Shown piece after piece: positions 7,831 to 62,127 of a stretch of DNA of 64,000 nucleotides. Where the stretch lies: positions 32,838 through 96,837 of the forward strand of contig DATNPJ010000027.1 of the NCBI GenBank assembly GCA_036703295.1, written 5' to 3'. This DNA comes from Coleofasciculaceae cyanobacterium (GTDB lineage: Bacteria > Cyanobacteriota > Vampirovibrionia > Vampirovibrionales > Vampirovibrionaceae). The notes below the pieces were generated by a model that made no database searches, had not been told where the DNA came from, and was given only the letters and a program-made list of their open reading frames with translations. The translations under genes and the position numbers were made by a program. The first letter of the stretch is position 1, and the number at the start of each line of letters is the position of its first letter.

Positions 7831-8364
7831 ATGAAAACGAACTTTTTCTCAGCTCCAATTGAAAAGTTACTCACAAGATCTGATATTAATACAGCAATTG
7901 AAAAAGGGGCAGCGAAAGCGCATCAAGAAATCAAAGAAATGGTAGAAAAAACTTGTAACAAATTGGAAATTGAGGTGCCCCCATATCCCTCTCACGGTGT
8001 TGCTCCAGAAGGACTAAAAATAGGAAAATATACCTTTAAAAGGAAGGGGGAGCCTCCTCTCGCTACAGATGTATATATTTCAAGAACAACTCCTTGTTTG
8101 GTGAGTGATGGTGCGGGATGGAAGGAGCAAATACATCAAGCACATGTCAAGTTTAGGACTCCTGATGGTCTGGATGTTTTAAGCAGCACTATTTTAGCTG
8201 AGGATCAGCCATACAGAATTATAAGTTACGGTGTGAGTAATTTTATGAATCCAAGCCGAGCAATACAAGATCAAGCGCAATCTTCTACTCGAGGGATTCG
8301 TTTAGAACAAATAGAAGGTGCAACGAAGATGCTGTTGGATAAAATTAGTAAGCAAGATATCTAA
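7831..8364 (+). CDS. Hypothetical protein (AT-rich ORFan)
   Basis: 177 aa. The gene and flanks (about 7700-8400) are visibly AT-rich relative to neighbours. Lys/Glu-rich N-terminus. No recognisable family. Confidence 0.4.
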   Translation: MKTNFFSAPIEKLLTRSDINTAIEKGAAKAHQEIKEMVEKTCNKLEIEVPPYPSHGVAPEGLKIGKYTFKRKGEPPLATDVYISRTTPCLVSDGAGWKEQIHQAHVKFRTPDGLDVLSSTILAEDQPYRIISYGVSNFMNPSRAIQDQAQSSTRGIRLEQIEGATKMLLDKISKQDI

Positions 8365-15650: not shown

Positions 15651-16268
15651 CTAGTTTGCAGTATTACCAAAGCCAGCTTCAGCTAAAGCCTCTCCATTAT
15701 TAATTCCGGGCGTACCTCCTTGGAGCAAGTTAAAAGTAGAACGGTGTTGCTGATTGTATATGTCTTTATATGCAACTTCCCCATAAACATATAATGCTTT
15801 TGTCCCGGCTAAAATTTCTGCCCGCTCTCCATCTGTATAGTCATCGTGACTGAGACTCATCCACACCGTTTCTCCGGATTCCAAAGTGAATTTGGAGAGC
15901 AAAATATTCTCAGGATCACCTAACTCGGCTATGGAAGAAGGATATTTTCTGACCGCCATCTTAGCCCAACCTCTGACATCATAAGCAGGAGTTTGGCCAG
16001 AATTTTTTAAACCTAAGGAAACGACCCGAATTCCTCTAGTGTGAAAATTATTAATTTTTACCTGATCAATACCCGCATAAGCCCTTAATTGATGATGCGC
16101 AGTATCTTCGGCAATGTCCGCTTGCCTTAAGGCGATTGCAAACATCAGCACATTGCCAATCAAACTCACTATCAGTAGGCAAATATTAACCCACACAGAG
16201 ATTGTTAATGGCTCTGTTTGAGACACAGATTTACCTAAAAACTTTTTAATTTTTTTCATTAGAATCAA
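15651..16268 (-). CDS. Hypothetical membrane-anchored protein (AT-rich ORFan)
   Basis: 205 aa. N-terminal TM 'VWVNICLLIVSLIGNVLMFAIAL'. The gene and flanks (about 15540-16330) are AT-rich versus neighbours. Confidence 0.4.
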   Translation of the reverse strand: MILMKKIKKFLGKSVSQTEPLTISVWVNICLLIVSLIGNVLMFAIALRQADIAEDTAHHQLRAYAGIDQVKINNFHTRGIRVVSLGLKNSGQTPAYDVRGWAKMAVRKYPSSIAELGDPENILLSKFTLESGETVWMSLSHDDYTDGERAEILAGTKALYVYGEVAYKDIYNQQHRSTFNLLQGGTPGINNGEALAEAGFGNTAN

Positions 16269-47956: not shown

Positions 47957-48233
47957 TGGCGTTGCTGGAAAGCGAATGCTGTCTAGCCCAATCTATCCAA
48001 CAAATGCAGCCTTAAACGGTTCCTTTTCTTGGTCTCAGGTCAACCGTAAGTATAGAAGGCGGTATGGAGGATAAAAGTCTAGTTCCTCCGTAGACTTTTG
48101 GGCGCTTTCTTGGAGACTTTAAGTATTAAGAATTGTAAATTTATCTAAAAGCCAAGACAGTTATTATTTATGAGGTGTGTTGTTGGGGTACAGCTTATAA
48201 CTTCACACGGACAAGCCGGAAGCATAGAACCCT

Positions 48234-49172
48234 ATGAACATAAATAGCCCTATGAACTTTCCAGTTGGAAGACATCATCTTGTATCTCCAAAATTTGGAT
48301 GGAAAAAGCAAGATTTAGAGAAAGACCCTTCGCGATGGCTGATTCATTTGGGAGTCGGCAAGGATAAAGACGTCATCTGGTCCAAAAACCGTCTGATACC
48401 CACCCAAAAACTAATTCATAAAGCATACAATATGCTCAACAGAACTTCCCTGGAGACTCCAGGTTTTCTGGTCATTGATAATATTGGCGACTTTGTTCAT
48501 ACTGAAAAAGGGCGACAACGCTTTCAAAATGAACTGTATCAAGGTGTCAACGACCTTTTTGAAAGAGCTATTCAAAAGGAAAGTACCTCCTCTCACATTC
48601 GTTCAGAACATGTTGAGACGAGAGAATTCAGACAAAAAGACGGCGCATTCAAACAGCCTTGTGGCTTCATGAGCGCTGCAAAGTTTACGTTAAAACGTTT
48701 TCACCATGATTCTCACACGATAATCGCATCCCATATCTATGACAAAGTTTATGGCATCAAAGGCGGCCAATTCATTCTTTTTGATGATTTGCAATATGCA
48801 AAAGATAAGAATGTAGCTGGCGGGCATACATCTCTCTATGAGCTTGAGCAAAACAAGCATGAATTCCCTTGTTCTCCGGTCTTAAAAGAAAAGTATAAAG
48901 ATCGAATTGGTGATTACACTTTCGAAATTGACACCATTCCTGAAAAAGGCAGCAATGGAAGACGCCAACCAAAGTTGATCATGTTTAATAACTTGTTTGA
49001 TGGCGTTGCTCATGGTGCAAGAGAGTTTGCAAGAATGTCACCACACTGGATGAGAAGTTATGCCCGGATTTTCTCCAGGCTATCCCGACACGGTGAAGAG
49101 CTCATCTGGGATAAGCTTCCGTTCCATCACCCTGATCATCACAACGCCAGCCGCTTAGAAGCATCATCATAG
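48234..49172 (+). CDS. Hypothetical protein (AT-rich ORFan)
   Basis: 312 aa, His-rich ('HHDSHTIIASHIYDK', 'FHHPDHHNAS'). Compositionally distinct from core genes. No recognisable family. Confidence 0.45.
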   Translation: MNINSPMNFPVGRHHLVSPKFGWKKQDLEKDPSRWLIHLGVGKDKDVIWSKNRLIPTQKLIHKAYNMLNRTSLETPGFLVIDNIGDFVHTEKGRQRFQNELYQGVNDLFERAIQKESTSSHIRSEHVETREFRQKDGAFKQPCGFMSAAKFTLKRFHHDSHTIIASHIYDKVYGIKGGQFILFDDLQYAKDKNVAGGHTSLYELEQNKHEFPCSPVLKEKYKDRIGDYTFEIDTIPEKGSNGRRQPKLIMFNNLFDGVAHGAREFARMSPHWMRSYARIFSRLSRHGEELIWDKLPFHHPDHHNASRLEASS

Positions 49173-49184
49173 AAAGAGTCTGCC

Positions 49185-49922
49185 ATGAGAATACCCAGCT
49201 ATAATTTTCAATCTTTTTCCAATGCTTCAAGCAGACATCATTCTCTGGCTGCTCATTTTTATTCGCAAGACCGCGTTTTCTTTGGAGGTATTCCTTTACA
49301 ACAACAAGCTTTAAGAGCGCTGGAAAAGGAGAATGTTCAGGGTTTTAACAAAATAAAACAACGTTTGGACAAACAAAAAACACCACTTGATTTATCAGGA
49401 TATGATTTTTCAGGCAAGATGCTACCTGGAATTGACTTGTCTGGCCTGAATTTGACGGGTGCCATTTTTACGAATGGTACAGATCTGACCAATGCAAAGC
49501 TCAGGAAAGCCCTGTTGCTTCGTATTGTCACAGACAATTCTACAACATGGACCGGAACGCCGTTTGATTCCACTCTCCCAATTAATGGGCCAAGCCTTAA
49601 AACCCTCATACAGAAATATAACTTCGAAGTAGAAGATCACTGTCTCGTTGGCTATCGAACCAATGGCTCTGTTAAAGGTGGTTTTACTTATGAGCTAGGG
49701 AAAAATTACAAATCGGATTTGTTCAGTCGTGATAAACAAAGCAGACACCACGGCTTATGGTTTTATCCTTCTACTGATATTGTGCGCCGACTGCATCCTG
49801 GTGAACCGATTATCAAAGTGCTTGTGCCCTATGGGGATTCTAACAAAACCAATTTAGTCAAGGGCGATTTGGATTTTCGTGCGCCAGAATTAACAGTATC
49901 AGATTTTCTTGGGGAAAACTGA
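49185..49922 (+). CDS. Pentapeptide-repeat protein
   Basis: 245 aa. Central 'DLSGYDFSGKMLPGIDLSGLNLTGAIFTNGTDLTNAKL' is a run of A(D/N)LxX pentapeptide repeats. AT-rich coding. Starts 13 nt after the previous ORF. Confidence 0.6.
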   Translation: MRIPSYNFQSFSNASSRHHSLAAHFYSQDRVFFGGIPLQQQALRALEKENVQGFNKIKQRLDKQKTPLDLSGYDFSGKMLPGIDLSGLNLTGAIFTNGTDLTNAKLRKALLLRIVTDNSTTWTGTPFDSTLPINGPSLKTLIQKYNFEVEDHCLVGYRTNGSVKGGFTYELGKNYKSDLFSRDKQSRHHGLWFYPSTDIVRRLHPGEPIIKVLVPYGDSNKTNLVKGDLDFRAPELTVSDFLGEN

Positions 49923-50207: not shown

Positions 50208-50209
50208 CG

Positions 50210-50283
50210 TACCCCCGGAGCGACTCGAACGCCCGACATGCTCCTTAGGACGGAGCCGTTCTATCCAACTGAACTACGGGGGC
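50210..50283 (-). tRNA. tRNA-Arg (anticodon CCU)
   Basis: Reverse complement folds as a cloverleaf: GCCCCCG / GTTC-AGTTGGATA-GAAC / GCTCC-GTCCTAA-GGAGC / GGGCG-TTCGAGT-CGCTC / CGGGGGT. The G1:U72 wobble makes the exact ends slightly uncertain. No encoded CCA. Confidence 0.75.
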
Positions 50284-57861: not shown

Positions 57862-58602
57862 CACCCATGACGCCAGGGCGTTGTTGAACAGGTGGCCGAT
57901 GACGCCGGGAATGATGGATTGGGTGCGTTCCCGCCAGTAACCCAGCACCAGCCCCAAGAGCAGCACGTACACCAGCGCCTGGATCTTCTCGTAATAGGTG
58001 CCGTGGAATAGCAGGAACAGCAGGCACGTAAAGATGACCGAGCGCACGGGTGTGGAAATCTTGTGGAAGGTGGTCTGCACGAAGCCCCGGAAGACCACCT
58101 CTTCCAGCACCGGCGCCATCAAAATGGCAAAGAAGCTGATAATCCGCAGTTCGTTGGAGGTGTAGCTTTCATAGGGCCGTTCCGAAGCGCCACCGGTCCA
58201 TTTAATCCACAAACTCACCAACACCATCATCGTCAGCATCACCAGGATGACGTGGATGGCTTCCTTCAGGTAGTATCCCGGCGAGCGGCTGAAGTCCACC
58301 CCCAGCCAGGGCAGGATGTTGCTGCGGTATCGCCAGGCCAAAATGAAAAAAATGGCGACCCAACTGGCAAAAGTAGTAGCCTGCTGGATGAAAATTTCGT
58401 AGGTGGGTTCTAAAAAAGGCGCCGTCAGGGTCAGGATATTGGAAACCAGCAGCGGAACCAGGATATAACCTGAAAACAACCCGACTGCAACCGTGTACAT
58501 ATCCCAGGGAGGTAAGGGCGCCGAGGCTGCATGAGCCGGTTGTCCGCTCCCGATCTCTTCAGGCTCCTGAATATTCTGTGTACTCTCCACTTTTTGAAGC
58601 AT
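57850..58602 (-). CDS. CPBP family intramembrane metalloprotease (CAAX protease self-immunity type)
   Basis: 250 aa polytopic protein. Motifs 'EEVVFRGF', 'FHGTYY', 'GVIGHLFNN' are the three CPBP motifs. Confidence 0.75.
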   Translation of the reverse strand: MLQKVESTQNIQEPEEIGSGQPAHAASAPLPPWDMYTVAVGLFSGYILVPLLVSNILTLTAPFLEPTYEIFIQQATTFASWVAIFFILAWRYRSNILPWLGVDFSRSPGYYLKEAIHVILVMLTMMVLVSLWIKWTGGASERPYESYTSNELRIISFFAILMAPVLEEVVFRGFVQTTFHKISTPVRSVIFTCLLFLLFHGTYYEKIQALVYVLLLGLVLGYWRERTQSIIPGVIGHLFNNALASWVLFR

Positions 58603-60068
58603 CCTCCGACGGCAGCCTGTTGTATGCTAGTAGCAGTATGCTTGCGCCTTTGACTCAATCCAAGTTCAAGGAACTGCCGCTCAACAGGGCCATTATATCA
58701 GACATCGTGCTCTGGGTTTTGCTGGCGGCTATGCTGGCCTTTGGGATCAATCTCTTTGCCATCCGCCTGCCCGAGCGGAAAGGACAAACCATCACGCTCC
58801 AGTTCCAGGACGCCAACGAGATCAGTAAGGGGTCCTCGGTTCGCATGATGGGCATTGATGTCGGCTACGTCAAAGACGTGCGCATCCGCCAGGATCACGT
58901 GGAAATCACCGTGCAAACCTATCCGCGCGTGTTGACCATTCCATCAGGCTCCACGTTTACCGTGCTGTTTACGGGGCTGGCCGGTGCCAAAAGCATCGAA
59001 ATCGAACTCCCGGCAGCCTCACAACCCCCCATCCAGGGACAGCCGGTCTACCGGGTGGAAGAGCCTATCCGGATGAAAGACCTGCTGGCCGCAAATATCG
59101 AGATTACCCAGGCCTTGCAGCAAGGCGCGGAGAATGTCACCGACTTTTTCGGAAAACGAAAACCCGTGGAAGAGCTGCAATTCAACATCCACCAGGCCCA
59201 TCAATGGAGCGTGTCCAACCTGGTGTTCATCGATGACTTCAACCGGCAGGTTCGGCAATTGGAGAACGATGTGGCCGTCAGTATTCTGGGCGGTATTGAT
59301 ACCCTGGGAACATTCAGCCAAGGCTTCCGGCTTGCCACGGATAAAACCGCGCCGACCGGCATTCGGTCCCGGTTTACTGTGGCGGCGAACGGCATTCGTG
59401 CTCTGCGGAGCTTGTTGATTTCAGAAAGCGCCAACACCGCAAACACCGCCGCCTTGTACGGGCAGATCGCCAGCATCAACACTGCCAACAGTCAGCTGAG
59501 CAATTGGTTGAACCGGGCGGAAGACAGCGCAAGCCGGTTCCCGCTGCAACGGAATCTGGTGCAGTTTGAATCCGGCACCGGCAGCTTCCTGGCGTTTATG
59601 AGCCGGGCGGAGAGTGCCCTCGGCCAGGATCGTCTGCCCGCGCTCCGCCATGCCCGGCAGAACATTCAGGGCTTCAACCGGCGGCTCATGGCCTGGAACG
59701 GGAACCCCACCTCGTCCGAATCGAAAGGCCCGCCAAAGCCATCCCCAGGGCCATCCGACATCGGGATCGCGCGGTCAATGCCCGCCAATAATGCTGCCAC
59801 TACCGCCCATGCGCAGGCAACCTCCGCGTCAGCCGATACCCGACAACCCGATGAGGCTTCCGCCGAGGCGATTACCATTGTGGACCGGAACGGCCAGCCG
59901 GTGCAGACGTTGCGGCATCGCTGGTGGGCAGAAAAATCCATTCAAAAACAAGTGCAAGCCCCTGTTACTCCCGCTGAAGCCATCCCTGCCAGCCCGAAAA
60001 AGCCACCTTCCCCGCTGGCCCGGTTTTTCCAGACGGTTTGGGATGCGCTGGTTTCGCTATTCCAGTAG
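58578..60068 (+). CDS. MCE/MlaD-domain protein
   Basis: Likely start at 58638 ('MLAPLTQ...', single TM). MCE domain 'TITLQFQDANEISKGSSVRMMGIDVGYVKDVRI'. Long Ala/Gln/Pro-rich C-terminal region. Confidence 0.65.
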   Translation: MYSPLFEASSDGSLLYASSSMLAPLTQSKFKELPLNRAIISDIVLWVLLAAMLAFGINLFAIRLPERKGQTITLQFQDANEISKGSSVRMMGIDVGYVKDVRIRQDHVEITVQTYPRVLTIPSGSTFTVLFTGLAGAKSIEIELPAASQPPIQGQPVYRVEEPIRMKDLLAANIEITQALQQGAENVTDFFGKRKPVEELQFNIHQAHQWSVSNLVFIDDFNRQVRQLENDVAVSILGGIDTLGTFSQGFRLATDKTAPTGIRSRFTVAANGIRALRSLLISESANTANTAALYGQIASINTANSQLSNWLNRAEDSASRFPLQRNLVQFESGTGSFLAFMSRAESALGQDRLPALRHARQNIQGFNRRLMAWNGNPTSSESKGPPKPSPGPSDIGIARSMPANNAATTAHAQATSASADTRQPDEASAEAITIVDRNGQPVQTLRHRWWAEKSIQKQVQAPVTPAEAIPASPKKPPSPLARFFQTVWDALVSLFQ

Positions 60069-60488
60069 ATTATCCGGCGAGAGGTTTTCCGCTGCTTCCA
60101 TTTCCGGTACGGTGGCCAGCAGGGGCTCCATGCGGTGCCATAGTGCGTAGAGGCGCTCTCGATCGGTCAGGTACAGGGCGCCCATCAGGGCTTCAAATCC
60201 GGTGGCCTGCCGGTGGGCGGCCTGACCGGCGCGTCGCCCTGTGCTGACGGTGATGTTGCGTCCCTGCCGGATGATTTCCAGCTCGGCCTCGGTGAGATGG
60301 GGTTTGATCTGGTGCAGCAGCGCCACTTGCGCTTCCGCCCGCGCCCGCTGGGTGGTAAAGGCATGCAGATCCTTGGAGTGGCTGAGTCCTTGGCCCACGG
60401 CCATTTCTCGCAGCAGAATCTCAAAGACCGCATCGCCGAGGAAGGCGAGTGCGCGGGGGTGGGGGAGGTTCTGAAACCCTTCAGACAC
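60057..60488 (-). CDS. mrnC: Mini-ribonuclease III
   Basis: 143 aa. Single RNase III catalytic signature 'ALAFLGDAVFEILLRE' without a dsRBD. 8-nt overlap with the upstream cysS, as in the Bacillus cysS-mrnC arrangement. Confidence 0.75.
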   Translation of the reverse strand: MSEGFQNLPHPRALAFLGDAVFEILLREMAVGQGLSHSKDLHAFTTQRARAEAQVALLHQIKPHLTEAELEIIRQGRNITVSTGRRAGQAAHRQATGFEALMGALYLTDRERLYALWHRMEPLLATVPEMEAAENLSPDNLLE

Positions 60489-62127
60489 GAACGATTTCCA
60501 AGCCGTCTTTTTCCACGGTGGTGGTGCCGTCCTTGTTATCCAGGATTTGCAACCCGATATCCGTCAGGTGCTTGCGAATCGCATCCGCCTGCGTCCAGTT
60601 CTTAATCTCTTTGGCTTTTTTGCGGTATTCCACAATTTCCGCCAGCAACACTTCCGGCTCCTGGTCCTCTTCCAACCACTTCCCGCTCAGTTCTTTGTAG
60701 ATGGTTCGGATTTGTTCTTGAGGGAGATCAACTGATGCAAATAAAAATTGCCAATTAAATCCCAATATATAGAGCATTGTCATTATTTCTTGAAAGTAAA
60801 ATCTATGAACATCAAGATAATGATCTGTAAACCCACTCAACATCTTATTAAGGTTTGCTAAAGCCTGAGCAGTATCAAGGTCTTTTTCCAAGTTCAGCTC
60901 AAAGGCAAGTAAACATTGATATAGTATGTAATATTCGGGTCTCTTTAGAAGCTCTTCTTCAGAAGCAGTTGCAACTAATTCATCTCTTTCATCTTTTTTA
61001 CGATAAAGAGCTTGTTTATTTGGAATAATTAATTCATCAATTTCTTTTTCAGTTAATTTAAGATGAGAATTAATGCGTACCAGACGACTCTCTAACTTTT
61101 TCACCCAATTTGCCGCAGCCTGTAATGCTTCATCATTAAAATCAACCGGCATGCGATAGCCGTTGGTTAGCAGGAAATACCGGATCGTATTGGCGTCATA
61201 GCGTTCCAGGAGTTTTTTAATCGTGGAGAAATTGCCCAAACTCTTGGACATTTTTTCGCCGCTGACATTCACGAAACCGTTGTGCAGCCAGTATTTGGCA
61301 AAACGATGGTTGGCGCAGGAATCTTCCGGGCCGCCGGCTAAATTCTGCCAGGTCTCGGTTTGGGCGATTTCGTTTTCATGGTGCGGAAACACCAGGTCCG
61401 CGCCGCCCGCGTGGATGTCAATCTGTGGCCCTAAGATAGCGTAATTCATCGCGGAGCACTCAATGTGCCAGCCCGGACGGCCCCGGCCCCACGGCGATTC
61501 AAAGCAATAGCCCTGGCTTAGCTTCTCGTCCGTCTGCTCTTCCGGTGGGACCGACTTCCACAGGGCAAAGTCCAGCGGGTTTTCCTTGTTGGGGTCCACG
61601 TCCACCCGTGCGCCGCTTTTCAACTCATCCAACGGCTTCTTGCTCAGCTGGCCGTAGTTGCCATCCGCAGACACCCGGAAATACACCGTCCCGTCCGACG
61701 CCACATAGGCGGCGTTTTTGGCAATCAACCCCTGGATCACCTCAATCATGGTCCCGATATACTCGGTGGCCTTGGGCTCGCGGTCCGGTGACAGCACGTT
61801 TAGCGCCGCCATGTCGGCTTTAAAGCTTTCGTAATTGCGCTCGGCCACGTCTTTGGGAAGCTCTCCACGTTCTTTCGCCCGGTTTAAAATCTTGTCGTCC
61901 ACATCCGTCACGTTGCGCACGTAAGTCACGTCGTAGCCCAGGAATTTCAGGAAGCGATACAGCACATCCCAGGTGATATAACAGCGAGCGTGGCCCAGAT
62001 GGGCGTCATCGTACACCGTGGGGCCGCAGACGTACATCTTCACCTTACCGGGCGCCAGCGGGTTGAATTCCTCCAGCTTGCCGGTGAGCGTATTGAACAG
62101 TTGCAGCTTGGGTTGGGGTTCGGTCAT
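60481..62127 (-). CDS. cysS: Cysteinyl-tRNA synthetase with an in-frame AT-rich insertion (about 140 aa) in the C-terminal half
   Basis: '[19 protein letters not shown]' HIGH motif, 'KMSKS' present ('[10 protein letters not shown]'), Zn-binding Cys residues. 548 aa versus the usual about 465. The segment at about 60720-61140 is strikingly AT-rich and still in frame. Confidence 0.85.

Follow-up and report, generated by a model that had tools for sequence, protein, structure and literature searches.

Why should a gene as conserved as that of an aminoacyl-tRNA synthetase contain, within an intact reading frame, a stretch of DNA that looks foreign to the chromosome around it? The question is raised by cysS, the gene of cysteine--tRNA ligase (CysRS), which lies at 60481..62127 on the minus strand of the 64,000-nt stretch of Vampirovibrionaceae DNA analysed here (hereafter, the window). 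Aminoacyl-tRNA synthetases are textbook conserved core genes, whose horizontal transfer as whole genes is well known, and the Vampirovibrionales are predatory, non-photosynthetic cyanobacteria. The gene is a complete ORF of 548 amino acids with a Pfam match to tRNA-synt_1e (E = 3e-121); the PF01406 score of 404.8 bits passes the curated cutoff of 27 and covers residues 21-339. In a protein search, its closest homologues are the CysRS of other Vampirovibrionales. The last 8 nt of cysS overlap the start of a mini-RNase III gene directly downstream (60057..60488), and there is no tRNA-Cys gene within the window.

An earlier note, made from the sequence alone, had drawn attention to an AT-rich stretch at 60720-61140 in the otherwise GC-rich cysS. 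The stretch is real and its coordinates were accurate to about 10 nt, as a two-breakpoint likelihood scan on third-position GC content (GC3), together with codon usage, places the block at codons 328-472 (60712..61146, minus strand). In 150-nt windows, GC falls to 29-36% at about 60700-61150, compared with 52-63% in the rest of cysS and a window mean of 54.7%, and the 200-nt minimum of 0.30 inside the block is the lowest anywhere in the 64 kb. More specifically, GC at the first, second and third codon positions is 52, 25 and 21% in the block versus 57, 37 and 74% in the rest of the gene, a highly significant difference for GC3 (Fisher p = 4e-28). Up to roughly codon 315, GC3 in 30-codon windows ranges from 60 to 87%, after which it drops; this intragenic drop of 0.50 compares with 0.24 for the next among the 40 window ORFs of at least 200 codons. 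Synonymous choice is reversed in the block: alanine is encoded by GCA and GCT instead of GCC and GCG, leucine by TTA and CTT instead of CTG, aspartate by GAT instead of GAC, and phenylalanine by TTT only. The shift is therefore one of codons and goes beyond amino-acid composition, in agreement with the earlier description of the stretch as compositionally foreign. Its relative synonymous codon usage (RSCU) correlates negatively with that of the remaining cysS (r = -0.50) and positively with that of the window's AT-rich ORFan genes (r = +0.44 to +0.63), and it is anti-correlated with that of core genes. Although they differ in composition, block and flanks lie on one transcript at one chromosomal position and are expressed at an equal level.

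Which parts of the enzyme does the block encode? The catalytic Rossmann/CP/SC-fold region (aa 21-339, 61111..62067, minus strand, by its Pfam envelope) is mostly of normal GC, and its final 12 codons (328-339) fall within the block. The HIGH motif (HLGH, aa 43-46, 61990..62001) and the KMSKS motif (aa 292-296, 61240..61254), both read directly from the minus-strand sequence, are invariant in 95 homologues. C34, C224, H249 and E253, which we take to be zinc ligands from knowledge of the E. coli enzyme, likewise do not vary across these homologues. The intact motifs suggest that the window protein is an ordinary CysRS that is still active.

Besides the end of the SC-fold, the block encodes the entire helical-bundle domain together with a helical excursion specific to the lineage. 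Helix 1 of the bundle, a 25-residue segment (aa 332-356, 61060..61134, minus strand) defined by DSSP and by alignment with Serratia and Aeromonas CysRS, is canonical; a codon alignment across the left junction shows protein-level conservation of its first residues, which are nevertheless written in AT-rich codons common to the relative L005. The true insertion relative to canonical CysRS comprises about 44 residues (aa ~358-401, 60925..61056, minus strand) that are gapped in every canonical-length CysRS of a MAFFT alignment. It is the most AT-rich part of all (GC3 0-13%) and is predicted to form extra short helices at 360-366, 371-387, 390-395 and 397-400, with a mean pLDDT of 84-97 over 10-residue blocks. 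Helices 2-4, aligned to canonical CysRS (aa 402-458, 60754..60924, minus strand), bear the family-wide motifs D416-L-D-T419, equivalent to DDFNT of E. coli-type enzymes, and L455-G456-F457; among the 95 sequences G456 is invariant, and D416, T419, L423, L455 and F457 are conserved to 90% or more. Normal GC is found in the following clade-specific linker of about 20 residues (aa 473-492, 60652..60711, minus strand), which the alignments place in many Vampirovibrionales and which is absent from P0004, P0008, P0019, P0029 and P0054. It is also found in the C-terminal anticodon-binding alpha/beta domain (aa 493-548, 60484..60651, minus strand). This domain is indicated by a weak CysS_C Pfam match (aa 502-534), a second HMMER domain against 8qhp (aa 479-536) and strands at 527-547 in the AF2 model, and it includes, at aa 511-521, the 11-residue block that the earlier note had recognized beyond the AT-rich stretch.

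The reading frame is open throughout the block. Leu, Glu, Ala, Asp and Lys abound in the encoded segment, which is predicted to be helical with a pLDDT mostly above 90, much as first described. The AF2 model of the whole protein (pLDDT 93.6) is a complete CysRS fold, and among PDB entries it best matches the E. coli CysRS-tRNA complex 1u0b_B (Foldseek E = 9e-41, 537 alignment columns, TM 0.84 on the target). A confident helical bundle is predicted for the different allele P0002 as well. In the E. coli complex, the helical bundle is flanked by the catalytic core on one side and the anticodon-binding domain on the other, and it adjoins the anticodon stem of the tRNA. Residues 358-478 of the window protein have no detectable sequence similarity to solved CysRS. 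The protein is 87 residues longer than the 461-aa E. coli chain 1li5_A, close to the 80 or so proposed earlier, and the extra residues other than the excursion sit outside the AT-rich block at normal GC. What does not hold is the notion of an insertion of about 140 codons, since roughly 100 of the 145 codons encode the canonical bundle and only about 44 residues are extra. Judged from alignment and predicted fold, the AT-rich stretch belongs to the canonical helical-bundle domain, made larger by the roughly 44-residue helical excursion.

The confidently predicted, folded helices of the excursion and the added length of the protein are consistent with a new accessory domain that folds independently and has a novel role, for instance in binding a partner or the anticodon. 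We nevertheless regard such a newly acquired domain, which the earlier note had favoured, as very unlikely. Most of the block, with helix 1 and helices 2-4, is normal bundle, and the structure prediction that had been proposed as a check for an independent domain returned the complete, confident CysRS fold. Furthermore, the segment has no Pfam match at E <= 1 and no homologue outside CysRS among 1.84 billion representative proteins at E <= 0.001. The excursion also varies in sequence and length, with a mid-region of 87-180 residues among homologues, which argues against a specific conserved new function. Two known types of extra polypeptide were rejected separately. The segment is all-helical with canonical CysRS motifs and has no Hint, intein or LAGLIDADG Pfam match at E <= 1, in line with the earlier remark that intein hallmarks are missing, and an appended domain of the CAAD type found in other synthetases was dismissed as there is no CAAD Pfam match at E <= 1.

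Is the AT-rich state peculiar to this genome? Of 15 Vampirovibrionales loci examined, 10 are AT-rich in this part of cysS, as against 0 of 23 other cysS genes. The GC3 of the flanks exceeds that of the mid-region by 26-53 points in the window and in loci L001, L002, L003, L005, L006, L008 and L011, and windowed profiles reveal the same dip in L170 and L171; the difference is -5 to +11 points in the five remaining Vampirovibrionales loci. A dip as a general property of cysS is ruled out by the 23 genes of other lineages, several of them from GC-rich genomes, with values of -3 to +11 points. At locus L007 (protein P0008), the homologous segment is of near-normal composition (GC3 67 versus 75), and both L007 and L009, which have no dip, carry mini-RNase III directly downstream of cysS. 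The presence of homologous segments in relatives, one of them near-normal in composition, contradicts the unique recent acquisition envisaged in the earlier note.

At the DNA level, L002 and L005 are 89-91% identical to the window upstream of the block and 82-89% identical downstream; blastn puts both flanks at 82-90%. The alignment with L002 runs at 89.8% identity down to 61196 and resumes at 89.2% from 60712, with 483 unalignable nt in between (60713-61195); identity restarts exactly at the linker. With L005, identity breaks at 61120 and restarts at 60599, leaving 520 unalignable nt (60600-61119). Breakpoints thus differ among lineages, and the divergent block of each lineage is its AT-rich block; in L002, AT-rich codons reach over the conserved residues aa 297-326, as they do only in the lineage whose block extends there. 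A second, independent pair from another subclade, L170 and L171, has the same break pattern. Between the breakpoints, identity of the variable segment, hereafter the cassette, to that of the nearest relatives is near-random (42% at the nucleotide and 22-25% at the amino-acid level) despite flanks that are 89-91% identical at the nucleotide level. At the left border, ahead of the point where their cassettes part, the window and L005 have AT-rich codons in common, which indicates that the AT-rich state predates the latest swap.

The relationships among cassettes do not follow those of the flanks. The window cassette matches P0003 (E = 1e-34) and P0008 (E = 4e-23), with flank identities of 77% and 71%, but reaches only E = 0.13 against P0002, though the flanks are 95% identical, and has no match in P0004, though the flanks are 89% identical. 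P0004 and P0006 have a common cassette type (70 bits), though the window and P0002 branch between them. Across 95 homologues, flank and mid-region identity are decoupled (r = 0.19), and in the 48 pairs whose flank identity reaches 85% or more, mid-region identity is bimodal, with 25 pairs at or below 35% and 23 pairs at or above 50%. Mosaic genes are recognized by abrupt identity breakpoints between close alleles and by incongruence of a block with the rest of the gene, and cysS has both. Sharp breakpoints against relatives of 89-91% identity, together with the phylogenetic incongruence, point to replacement of the block by recombination. In seemingly vertical pairs, the cassette diverges about 2-5 times faster than the flanks. 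Among the pairs listed in the 95-sequence matrix, none is closer in the cassette than in the flanks, so that no recent transfer among the sampled lineages was caught and part of the pattern could be very fast divergence in situ.

The explanation that we consider probable is that the block is the native helical bundle, a fast-evolving cassette replaced by recombination in an otherwise ordinary CysRS. In a subset of Vampirovibrionales, the bundle region of cysS would act like accessory DNA within a core gene, evolving several-fold faster than the remaining protein and being swapped repeatedly as a block, presumably by homologous recombination whose crossovers fall in the strongly conserved codons on either side. 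The exchanged segments would bring along an AT-rich codon usage resembling that of the genome's ORFan islands. The window allele falls into one cassette family with those of the more distant P0003, P0008, P0005 and P0010, and the nearest relatives have unrelated-looking alleles. The AT-richness itself may reflect a shared AT-rich donor pool. Alternatively, the block may locally escape whichever process, GC-biased gene conversion or codon selection, maintains the high GC3 of the core. As the alleles are non-homologous and weakly constrained, neither process could act well on the cassette. Of the gene-conversion patch suggested in the earlier note, replacement of a block by recombination stands, and the one-off event does not, as the AT-rich state is recurrent in a subset of the order. 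We know of no selective agent for such diversification, which counts against this explanation.

If, instead, cysS had been patched only once, recently and in this lineage alone, by gene conversion from a low-GC donor such as a member of the Melainabacteria with 30-38% GC, this would fit the onset of foreign codon usage within a conserved protein stretch and the dissimilarity of the window cassette to those of the two nearest relatives. Most Melainabacteria outside the Vampirovibrionales are indeed reported to be low in GC, at 27.5-49.4% (PMC4451040). However, the cassettes of the low-GC Gastranaerophilales are short (93-110 aa), without the excursion and dissimilar (P0114, E = 2.2), the nearest cassettes (P0003, P0008) reside in loci of 56-60% GC, and none of the Vampirovibrionales loci examined has low-GC flanks, the lowest being at 44%. 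Moreover, the region is AT-rich in nine other lineages with different alleles and the AT-rich left border is common to the window and L005, so that a single recent event is insufficient, and we judge it unlikely. The donor searches yielded no candidate: a full-length query against 5.8 billion proteins returned no close cassette, and the phage, plasmid (tblastn) and viral (IMG/VR) collections gave no match to the cassette, leaving a mobile-element donor without support. An exhaustive HMMER search with the cassette alone (136 aa) against the 1.84 billion representative proteins gave zero matches at E <= 0.001, a null that is uninformative on close relatives since the 50%-identity clusters are represented by proteins with other cassettes. 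A metagenome scan with the full protein, dominated by the generic pattern WHIECSAM, found distant CysRS only and no close relatives.

The lack of a donor in the protein, phage, plasmid and viral searches also suits a purely in-situ origin, in which weak constraint with AT-biased mutation and indels, or local hypermutation, would have produced the alleles without lateral replacement. The faster divergence of the cassette in seemingly vertical pairs and the absence of listed pairs with cassette identity above flank identity speak for it as well. It is quite unlikely, however, because near-random cassettes between flanks of 89-91% nucleotide identity are impossible at a normal mutation rate, and divergence is bimodal rather than graded. 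Cassette groups also cross flank groups, with the window joining P0003 and P0008, and P0004 joining P0006, and AT-rich codons cover the conserved residues 297-326 only where the block of L002 reaches. Nor does the 64 kb hold a template repeat of 60700-61150, the blastn and blastn-short searches giving only chance matches of at most 12 nt, by which a diversity-generating retroelement was rejected too. A silent cassette was discarded in turn, since nothing resembling the cassettes of 94 relatives is present in the rest of the window.

Selection on AT-richness at the DNA or RNA level, whether through an internal promoter for mini-RNase III, an embedded RNA or a rare-codon pause between domains, would explain why the dip recurs in one place within the gene across many lineages whose protein sequences differ, and codons rare for the genome (TTA, ATA, AGA) are concentrated in the block. 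Yet promoter-like sites are not in excess (1 found versus 1.7 expected), there is no Rfam match at E <= 1, the boundaries shift with the replaced block rather than being fixed, and five Vampirovibrionales loci are without the dip, at least two of which (L007, L009) have mini-RNase III directly downstream, all of which makes this reading highly improbable. Mis-assembly likewise appears unlikely from the sequences compared. The window probably stems from a metagenome-assembled genome and the junctions lie within conserved codons, where an assembler might have jumped at conserved k-mers into a co-occurring low-GC relative and back. Against such a chimera, which we find improbable in the extreme, stands the separately deposited JGI contig L004, which has different ends, starts inside cysS and is 100% identical over 6547 nt, though it may derive from the sample behind the window or from a related one. 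Blocks of this kind recur in nine further assemblies, which stem from different samples and pipelines and include a Vampirovibrio chlorellavorus genome assembly; frame and bundle motifs are kept every time, and the databases searched contain no low-GC relative with such a cassette.

With the recombining native bundle as the preferred explanation, what could maintain its diversity? Tentatively, and with a low probability in our view, diversifying (frequency-dependent) selection might act on the cassette. In that case a phage protein, a toxin, a factor linked to predation or some other antagonist would dock on the bundle surface of the essential enzyme, and many ancient alleles would be retained in a shared AT-rich pool and recombined, as an intragenic analogue of an O-antigen locus. 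In a related reading, non-recombining DNA would escape GC-biased gene conversion and decay to its AT-rich mutational equilibrium inside a GC-rich core gene, forming a natural experiment. A domain-sized, hypervariable, accessory-like cassette that is repeatedly replaced within an essential synthetase would be unusual. If it is confirmed at the population level, the question becomes which force diversifies a tRNA-binding surface, and the block may help to separate the causes of GC content, namely mutation bias, selection and biased gene conversion. In practical terms, cysS is a poor marker for phylogeny and binning in Vampirovibrionales, and composition-based screens for chimeras or horizontal transfer will flag its block. 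Our literature search returned nothing specific on CysRS in Melainabacteria, on mosaic aminoacyl-tRNA synthetase genes or on GC-biased gene conversion in connection with hypervariable loci.

Compared with canonical CysRS, as represented by E. coli CysS (1li5, and 1u0b with tRNA-Cys), the window enzyme has the same order of Rossmann/CP region, SC-fold, helical bundle and C-terminal anticodon-binding domain, as well as HIGH, KMSKS and the conserved Cys, His and Glu residues. It differs in its 87 additional residues, the bundle excursion of about 44 residues and the AT-rich, hypervariable coding block. The CAAD membrane-anchor domain in cyanobacterial Val-, Leu-, Ile- and GluRS is a lineage-specific synthetase appendage; the cysS excursion resembles it as a clade-restricted extra polypeptide in a synthetase of a cyanobacterial lineage but, unlike a conserved module, varies in both length and sequence.

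Among mosaic genes, the streptococcal pbp genes and the surface-protein genes of Neisseria are examples, and low-GC hypervariable accessory loci between conserved genes include O-antigen and capsule clusters and ORFan islands. The formation of mosaic genes by intragenic homologous recombination is a general concept (PMC3241670). Like them, cysS has divergent blocks with sharp breakpoints in near-identical alleles and incongruent segments. Unlike them, it encodes an essential cytoplasmic housekeeping enzyme under no known antibiotic or immune pressure, and its block is a whole structural domain that is strongly AT-rich and for which no donor species was found. With the O-antigen, capsule and ORFan loci, cysS has in common that the hypervariable DNA has a higher AT content than the core genome and is apparently exchanged via conserved flanks, and the codon usage of the cassette resembles that of the genome's ORFans. 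In contrast to these multi-gene loci, the cysS unit measures about 0.45 kb within one ORF, in which both frame and fold are required.

The cysS gene (60481..62127, minus strand) encodes a 548-aa CysRS that matches Pfam tRNA-synt_1e at E = 3e-121. In 150-nt windows, its GC content drops from 52-63% to 29-36% between ~60700 and ~61150, and the lowest 200-nt value in all 64 kb (0.30, against a mean of 54.7%) lies inside this region. A two-breakpoint likelihood scan of third codon positions placed the AT-rich block at codons 328-472, corresponding to 60712..61146 on the minus strand. GC1/2/3 amount to 52/25/21% within the block versus 57/37/74% outside it, and the GC3 contrast is highly significant (Fisher p = 4e-28). 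Synonymous choice is inverted in the block (Ala GCA/GCT, Leu TTA/CTT, Asp GAT, Phe TTT), so the anomaly is one of codon usage and not of amino-acid content alone. The biggest intragenic GC3 drop among the window's 40 ORFs of 200 codons or more is that of cysS (0.50; runner-up 0.24); the remaining AT-rich patches are entire ORFan genes. The AT-rich stretch that an earlier note had described in cysS is thus borne out by GC profile, codon usage and Fisher test, and the anomaly is real and statistically extreme.

Using HMMER, residues 8-357 and 479-536 of the CysRS aligned to solved CysRS structures, and the residues between them had no match. This intervening part was identified as a helical bundle from its position and structure. 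An AlphaFold2 model built with 95 homologues in the input reached a mean pLDDT of 93.6, with the block confidently helical, and its top PDB match was the E. coli CysRS-tRNA complex (1u0b_B, E = 9e-41, 537 columns, TM 0.84 on target). Alignment with canonical-length enzymes from Serratia, Aeromonas and gut Gastranaerophilales maps helix 1 (aa 332-356) and helices 2-4 (aa ~402-458) onto the normal helical-bundle domain. Helices 2-4 contain D416-x-x-T419, the equivalent of DDFNT in E. coli-type enzymes, as well as L455-G456-F457; across 95 sequences, G456 is invariant and D416, T419, L455 and F457 are at least 90% conserved. Only ~44 residues (aa ~358-401) are without counterpart in canonical CysRS. 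Further extra length falls outside the AT-rich block and has normal GC, comprising two small catalytic-half insertions, a ~20-aa linker element (aa 473-492) and a C-terminal tail. The stretch at 60720-61140 is therefore no insertion of ~140 codons; it consists of the enzyme's native helical-bundle domain, enlarged by a variable excursion of ~44 aa. HIGH, KMSKS and four invariant Cys/His/Glu residues, which we take to be zinc ligands, are intact, so that cysS looks functional as predicted from its sequence.

The two catalytic-half insertions (61480-61560, aa ~197-210; 61300-61350, aa ~259-272) have normal GC and are common only to the closest relatives among the homologous CysRS proteins (P0002-P0005 and P0008). 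The linker element and the first anticodon-binding-domain helices are also mosaic (60600-60711 versus 2713-2831 of L005, the DNA locus of P0004; alignment columns for aa 473-524); the element is absent in P0004, P0008, P0019, P0029 and P0054, and present in nearer and in more distant relatives.

The top matches of the window CysRS are Vampirovibrionales (Melainabacteria) enzymes of 500-584 aa, so that the extended length is a clade trait. We compared the DNA of 14 orthologous Vampirovibrionales loci and one contig identical to the window. The conserved order is glycogen synthase, CDP-alcohol phosphatidyltransferase, cysS, mini-RNase III, MlaD-domain protein and Rce1-like protease, and it was found in most Vampirovibrionales loci examined. 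The start of the mini-RNase III (Ribonuclease_3) gene (60057..60488, minus strand) is overlapped by 8 nt by cysS, a pairing that recalls Bacillus cysS-mrnC. The MlaD-domain protein (58578..60068, plus strand) has a Pro/Ala/Ser-rich low-complexity C-terminal half, with GC up to 65-69%, and ranges from 346 to 496 aa across relatives. Several MAG records (L010, L029, L042, L046, L059) are labelled Oculatellaceae, Muribaculaceae or Gammaproteobacteria, and their cysS groups with Vampirovibrionales or Gastranaerophilales, which suggests mislabelled or contaminated bins.

As in the window, the corresponding part of cysS is rich in AT in nine of the retrieved Vampirovibrionales loci. GC3 of the flanks exceeds that of the mid region by 26-53 points in the window, L001, L002, L003, L005, L006, L008 (a Vampirovibrio chlorellavorus assembly) and L011, and a similar dip appears in the windowed GC3 profiles of L170 and L171. 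The difference is only -5 to +9 points in five further Vampirovibrionales loci and -3 to +11 in 23 cysS genes of other lineages, several of them from GC-rich genomes; the dip is therefore confined to a subset of the order and is not general to cysS.

Across the 95 homologues, flank and mid-region identity are nearly uncorrelated (r = 0.19), and median mid-region identity stays at 28-29% for flank identities from 50% to 90%. The 48 pairs whose flanks reach 85% identity or more fall into two groups by mid-region identity, 25 at 35% or less and 23 at 50% or more; such bimodality is more in line with discrete replacement than with graded divergence. Compared with the window, L002 (the locus of P0002), one of its two nearest relatives along with L005, is 89.8% identical upstream of the block and 89.2% downstream at the nucleotide level, with an unalignable stretch at 60713-61195 and 22% amino-acid identity in the mid region. 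For L005 the corresponding values are 88.7% and 82.4%, with 60600-61119 unalignable and 25% in the mid region. Codon-level alignments show that the breakpoints differ among the three, and in each lineage the stretch diverging from the other two is precisely its own AT-rich stretch: L002 is AT-rich from ~aa 297 and the replaced AT-rich block of L005 reaches ~aa 524, both places where the window is GC-rich. A second, independent pair in another subclade (L170 versus L171, loci of 47-50% GC) repeats the pattern, with 91% identity over 2.5 kb, a ~430-nt unalignable AT-rich block, and then 88%.

Kinship of the cassettes, as we call the AT-rich helical-bundle part, departs from that of the flanks. 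The window cassette matches those of P0003 (E = 1e-34), P0008 (4e-23), P0010 (2e-15) and P0005 (6e-12), whose flanks are only 71-78% identical to its own. Cassettes of the relatives closest by their flanks fare far worse: for P0002, with 95% flank identity, E is 0.13, and for P0004 (89%) there is no match to the window cassette. P0004 and P0006 have in common a cassette type (70 bits) other than the window's, and P0002 stands alone. This sharing runs against the flank relationships, ((window, P0002), P0004), P0006, and no scenario without lateral cassette exchange would appear to fit the groupings. The window and P0002 alleles both form confident helical bundles in predicted models and would thus be structural equivalents.

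Several other explanations were considered. Mis-assembly is made unlikely by a separately deposited JGI contig that starts inside cysS and is 100% identical over 6547 nt, and by a like block in nine other assemblies. A new accessory module, as the earlier note proposed, is at odds with an excursion inconstant in length and sequence (mid regions span 87-180 aa) and without a homologue outside CysRS among 1.84 billion representative proteins. The same note's remark that intein hallmarks were lacking holds, as the Pfam search returned no intein or other domain at E <= 1 besides those of CysRS. A DGR or silent cassettes were rejected because both a repeat of the block and cassette-like sequence are absent elsewhere in the 64-kb window, and an embedded RNA or promoter because the block has no Rfam match and no excess of promoter-like sites. 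The suggestion of a gene-conversion patch comes closest to the evidence but is too narrow, since one recent event does not account for a cassette replacement that recurs in Vampirovibrionales.

Regarding the source of the AT-richness, the analysis turned up no low-GC genome with a cassette of this architecture as a possible donor. In Gastranaerophilales the cassette is short and unlike the window's, and no listed pair in the 95-homologue matrix has cassettes more similar than its flanks. GC contents of 51.4% for V. chlorellavorus and 27.5-49.4% for other Melainabacteria have been reported (PMC4451040). The cassette gave zero matches among 1.84 billion representative proteins and in phage, plasmid and viral collections; a word-indexed protein search with a 131-aa cassette query missed P0001, which contains the identical sequence, and negatives from that kind of search are unreliable for short, AT-driven queries. 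Within one homologous cassette family, GC3 spans 21% (window), 42% (L001) and 67% (L007, the locus of P0008), compatible with amelioration after import or with in-situ decay. AT-rich codons at the left border are common to the window and L005 before the cassettes diverge, which would make the AT-rich state older than the latest swap. Codon usage in the cassette correlates with that in the ORFan islands of the window (r = 0.44-0.63) and negatively with that in core genes. Together, the lack of a donor, the older AT-rich state, the GC3 spread and the ORFan-like codons favour the reading of a zone that is persistently AT-rich, evolves fast and would have its alleles exchanged among related lineages. 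One possibility is that the alleles belong to an AT-rich mobile pool; another is that, being non-homologous and weakly constrained, they escape the force holding core GC3 high, which would be GC-biased gene conversion or codon selection.

Other AT-rich DNA occurs in the window. An islet at 47971-49780 (~40% GC, GC3 35-40%) carries two AT-rich, ORFan-like genes on the plus strand (48234..49172 and 49185..49922), directly adjoins tRNA-Arg(CCT) (50209..50283) and correlates with the cassette in codon usage at r = 0.44-0.60. An AT-rich islet of ORFan-like genes right next to a tRNA gene is how integrated foreign elements are classically arranged. Two isolated AT-rich ORFans, also with cassette-like codon usage, lie between thymidylate kinase and an ATPase-like gene (7831..8364, plus strand, GC3 29%) and among core genes by a large ribonucleotide-reductase-like gene (15651..16268, minus strand, GC3 35%).

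Literature searches returned no description of a hypervariable, AT-rich, recombination-replaced cassette inside an essential synthetase, and we know of none. The phenomenon is a combination of known processes, namely gene mosaicism, lineage-specific expansions of aaRS and AT-rich accessory DNA.
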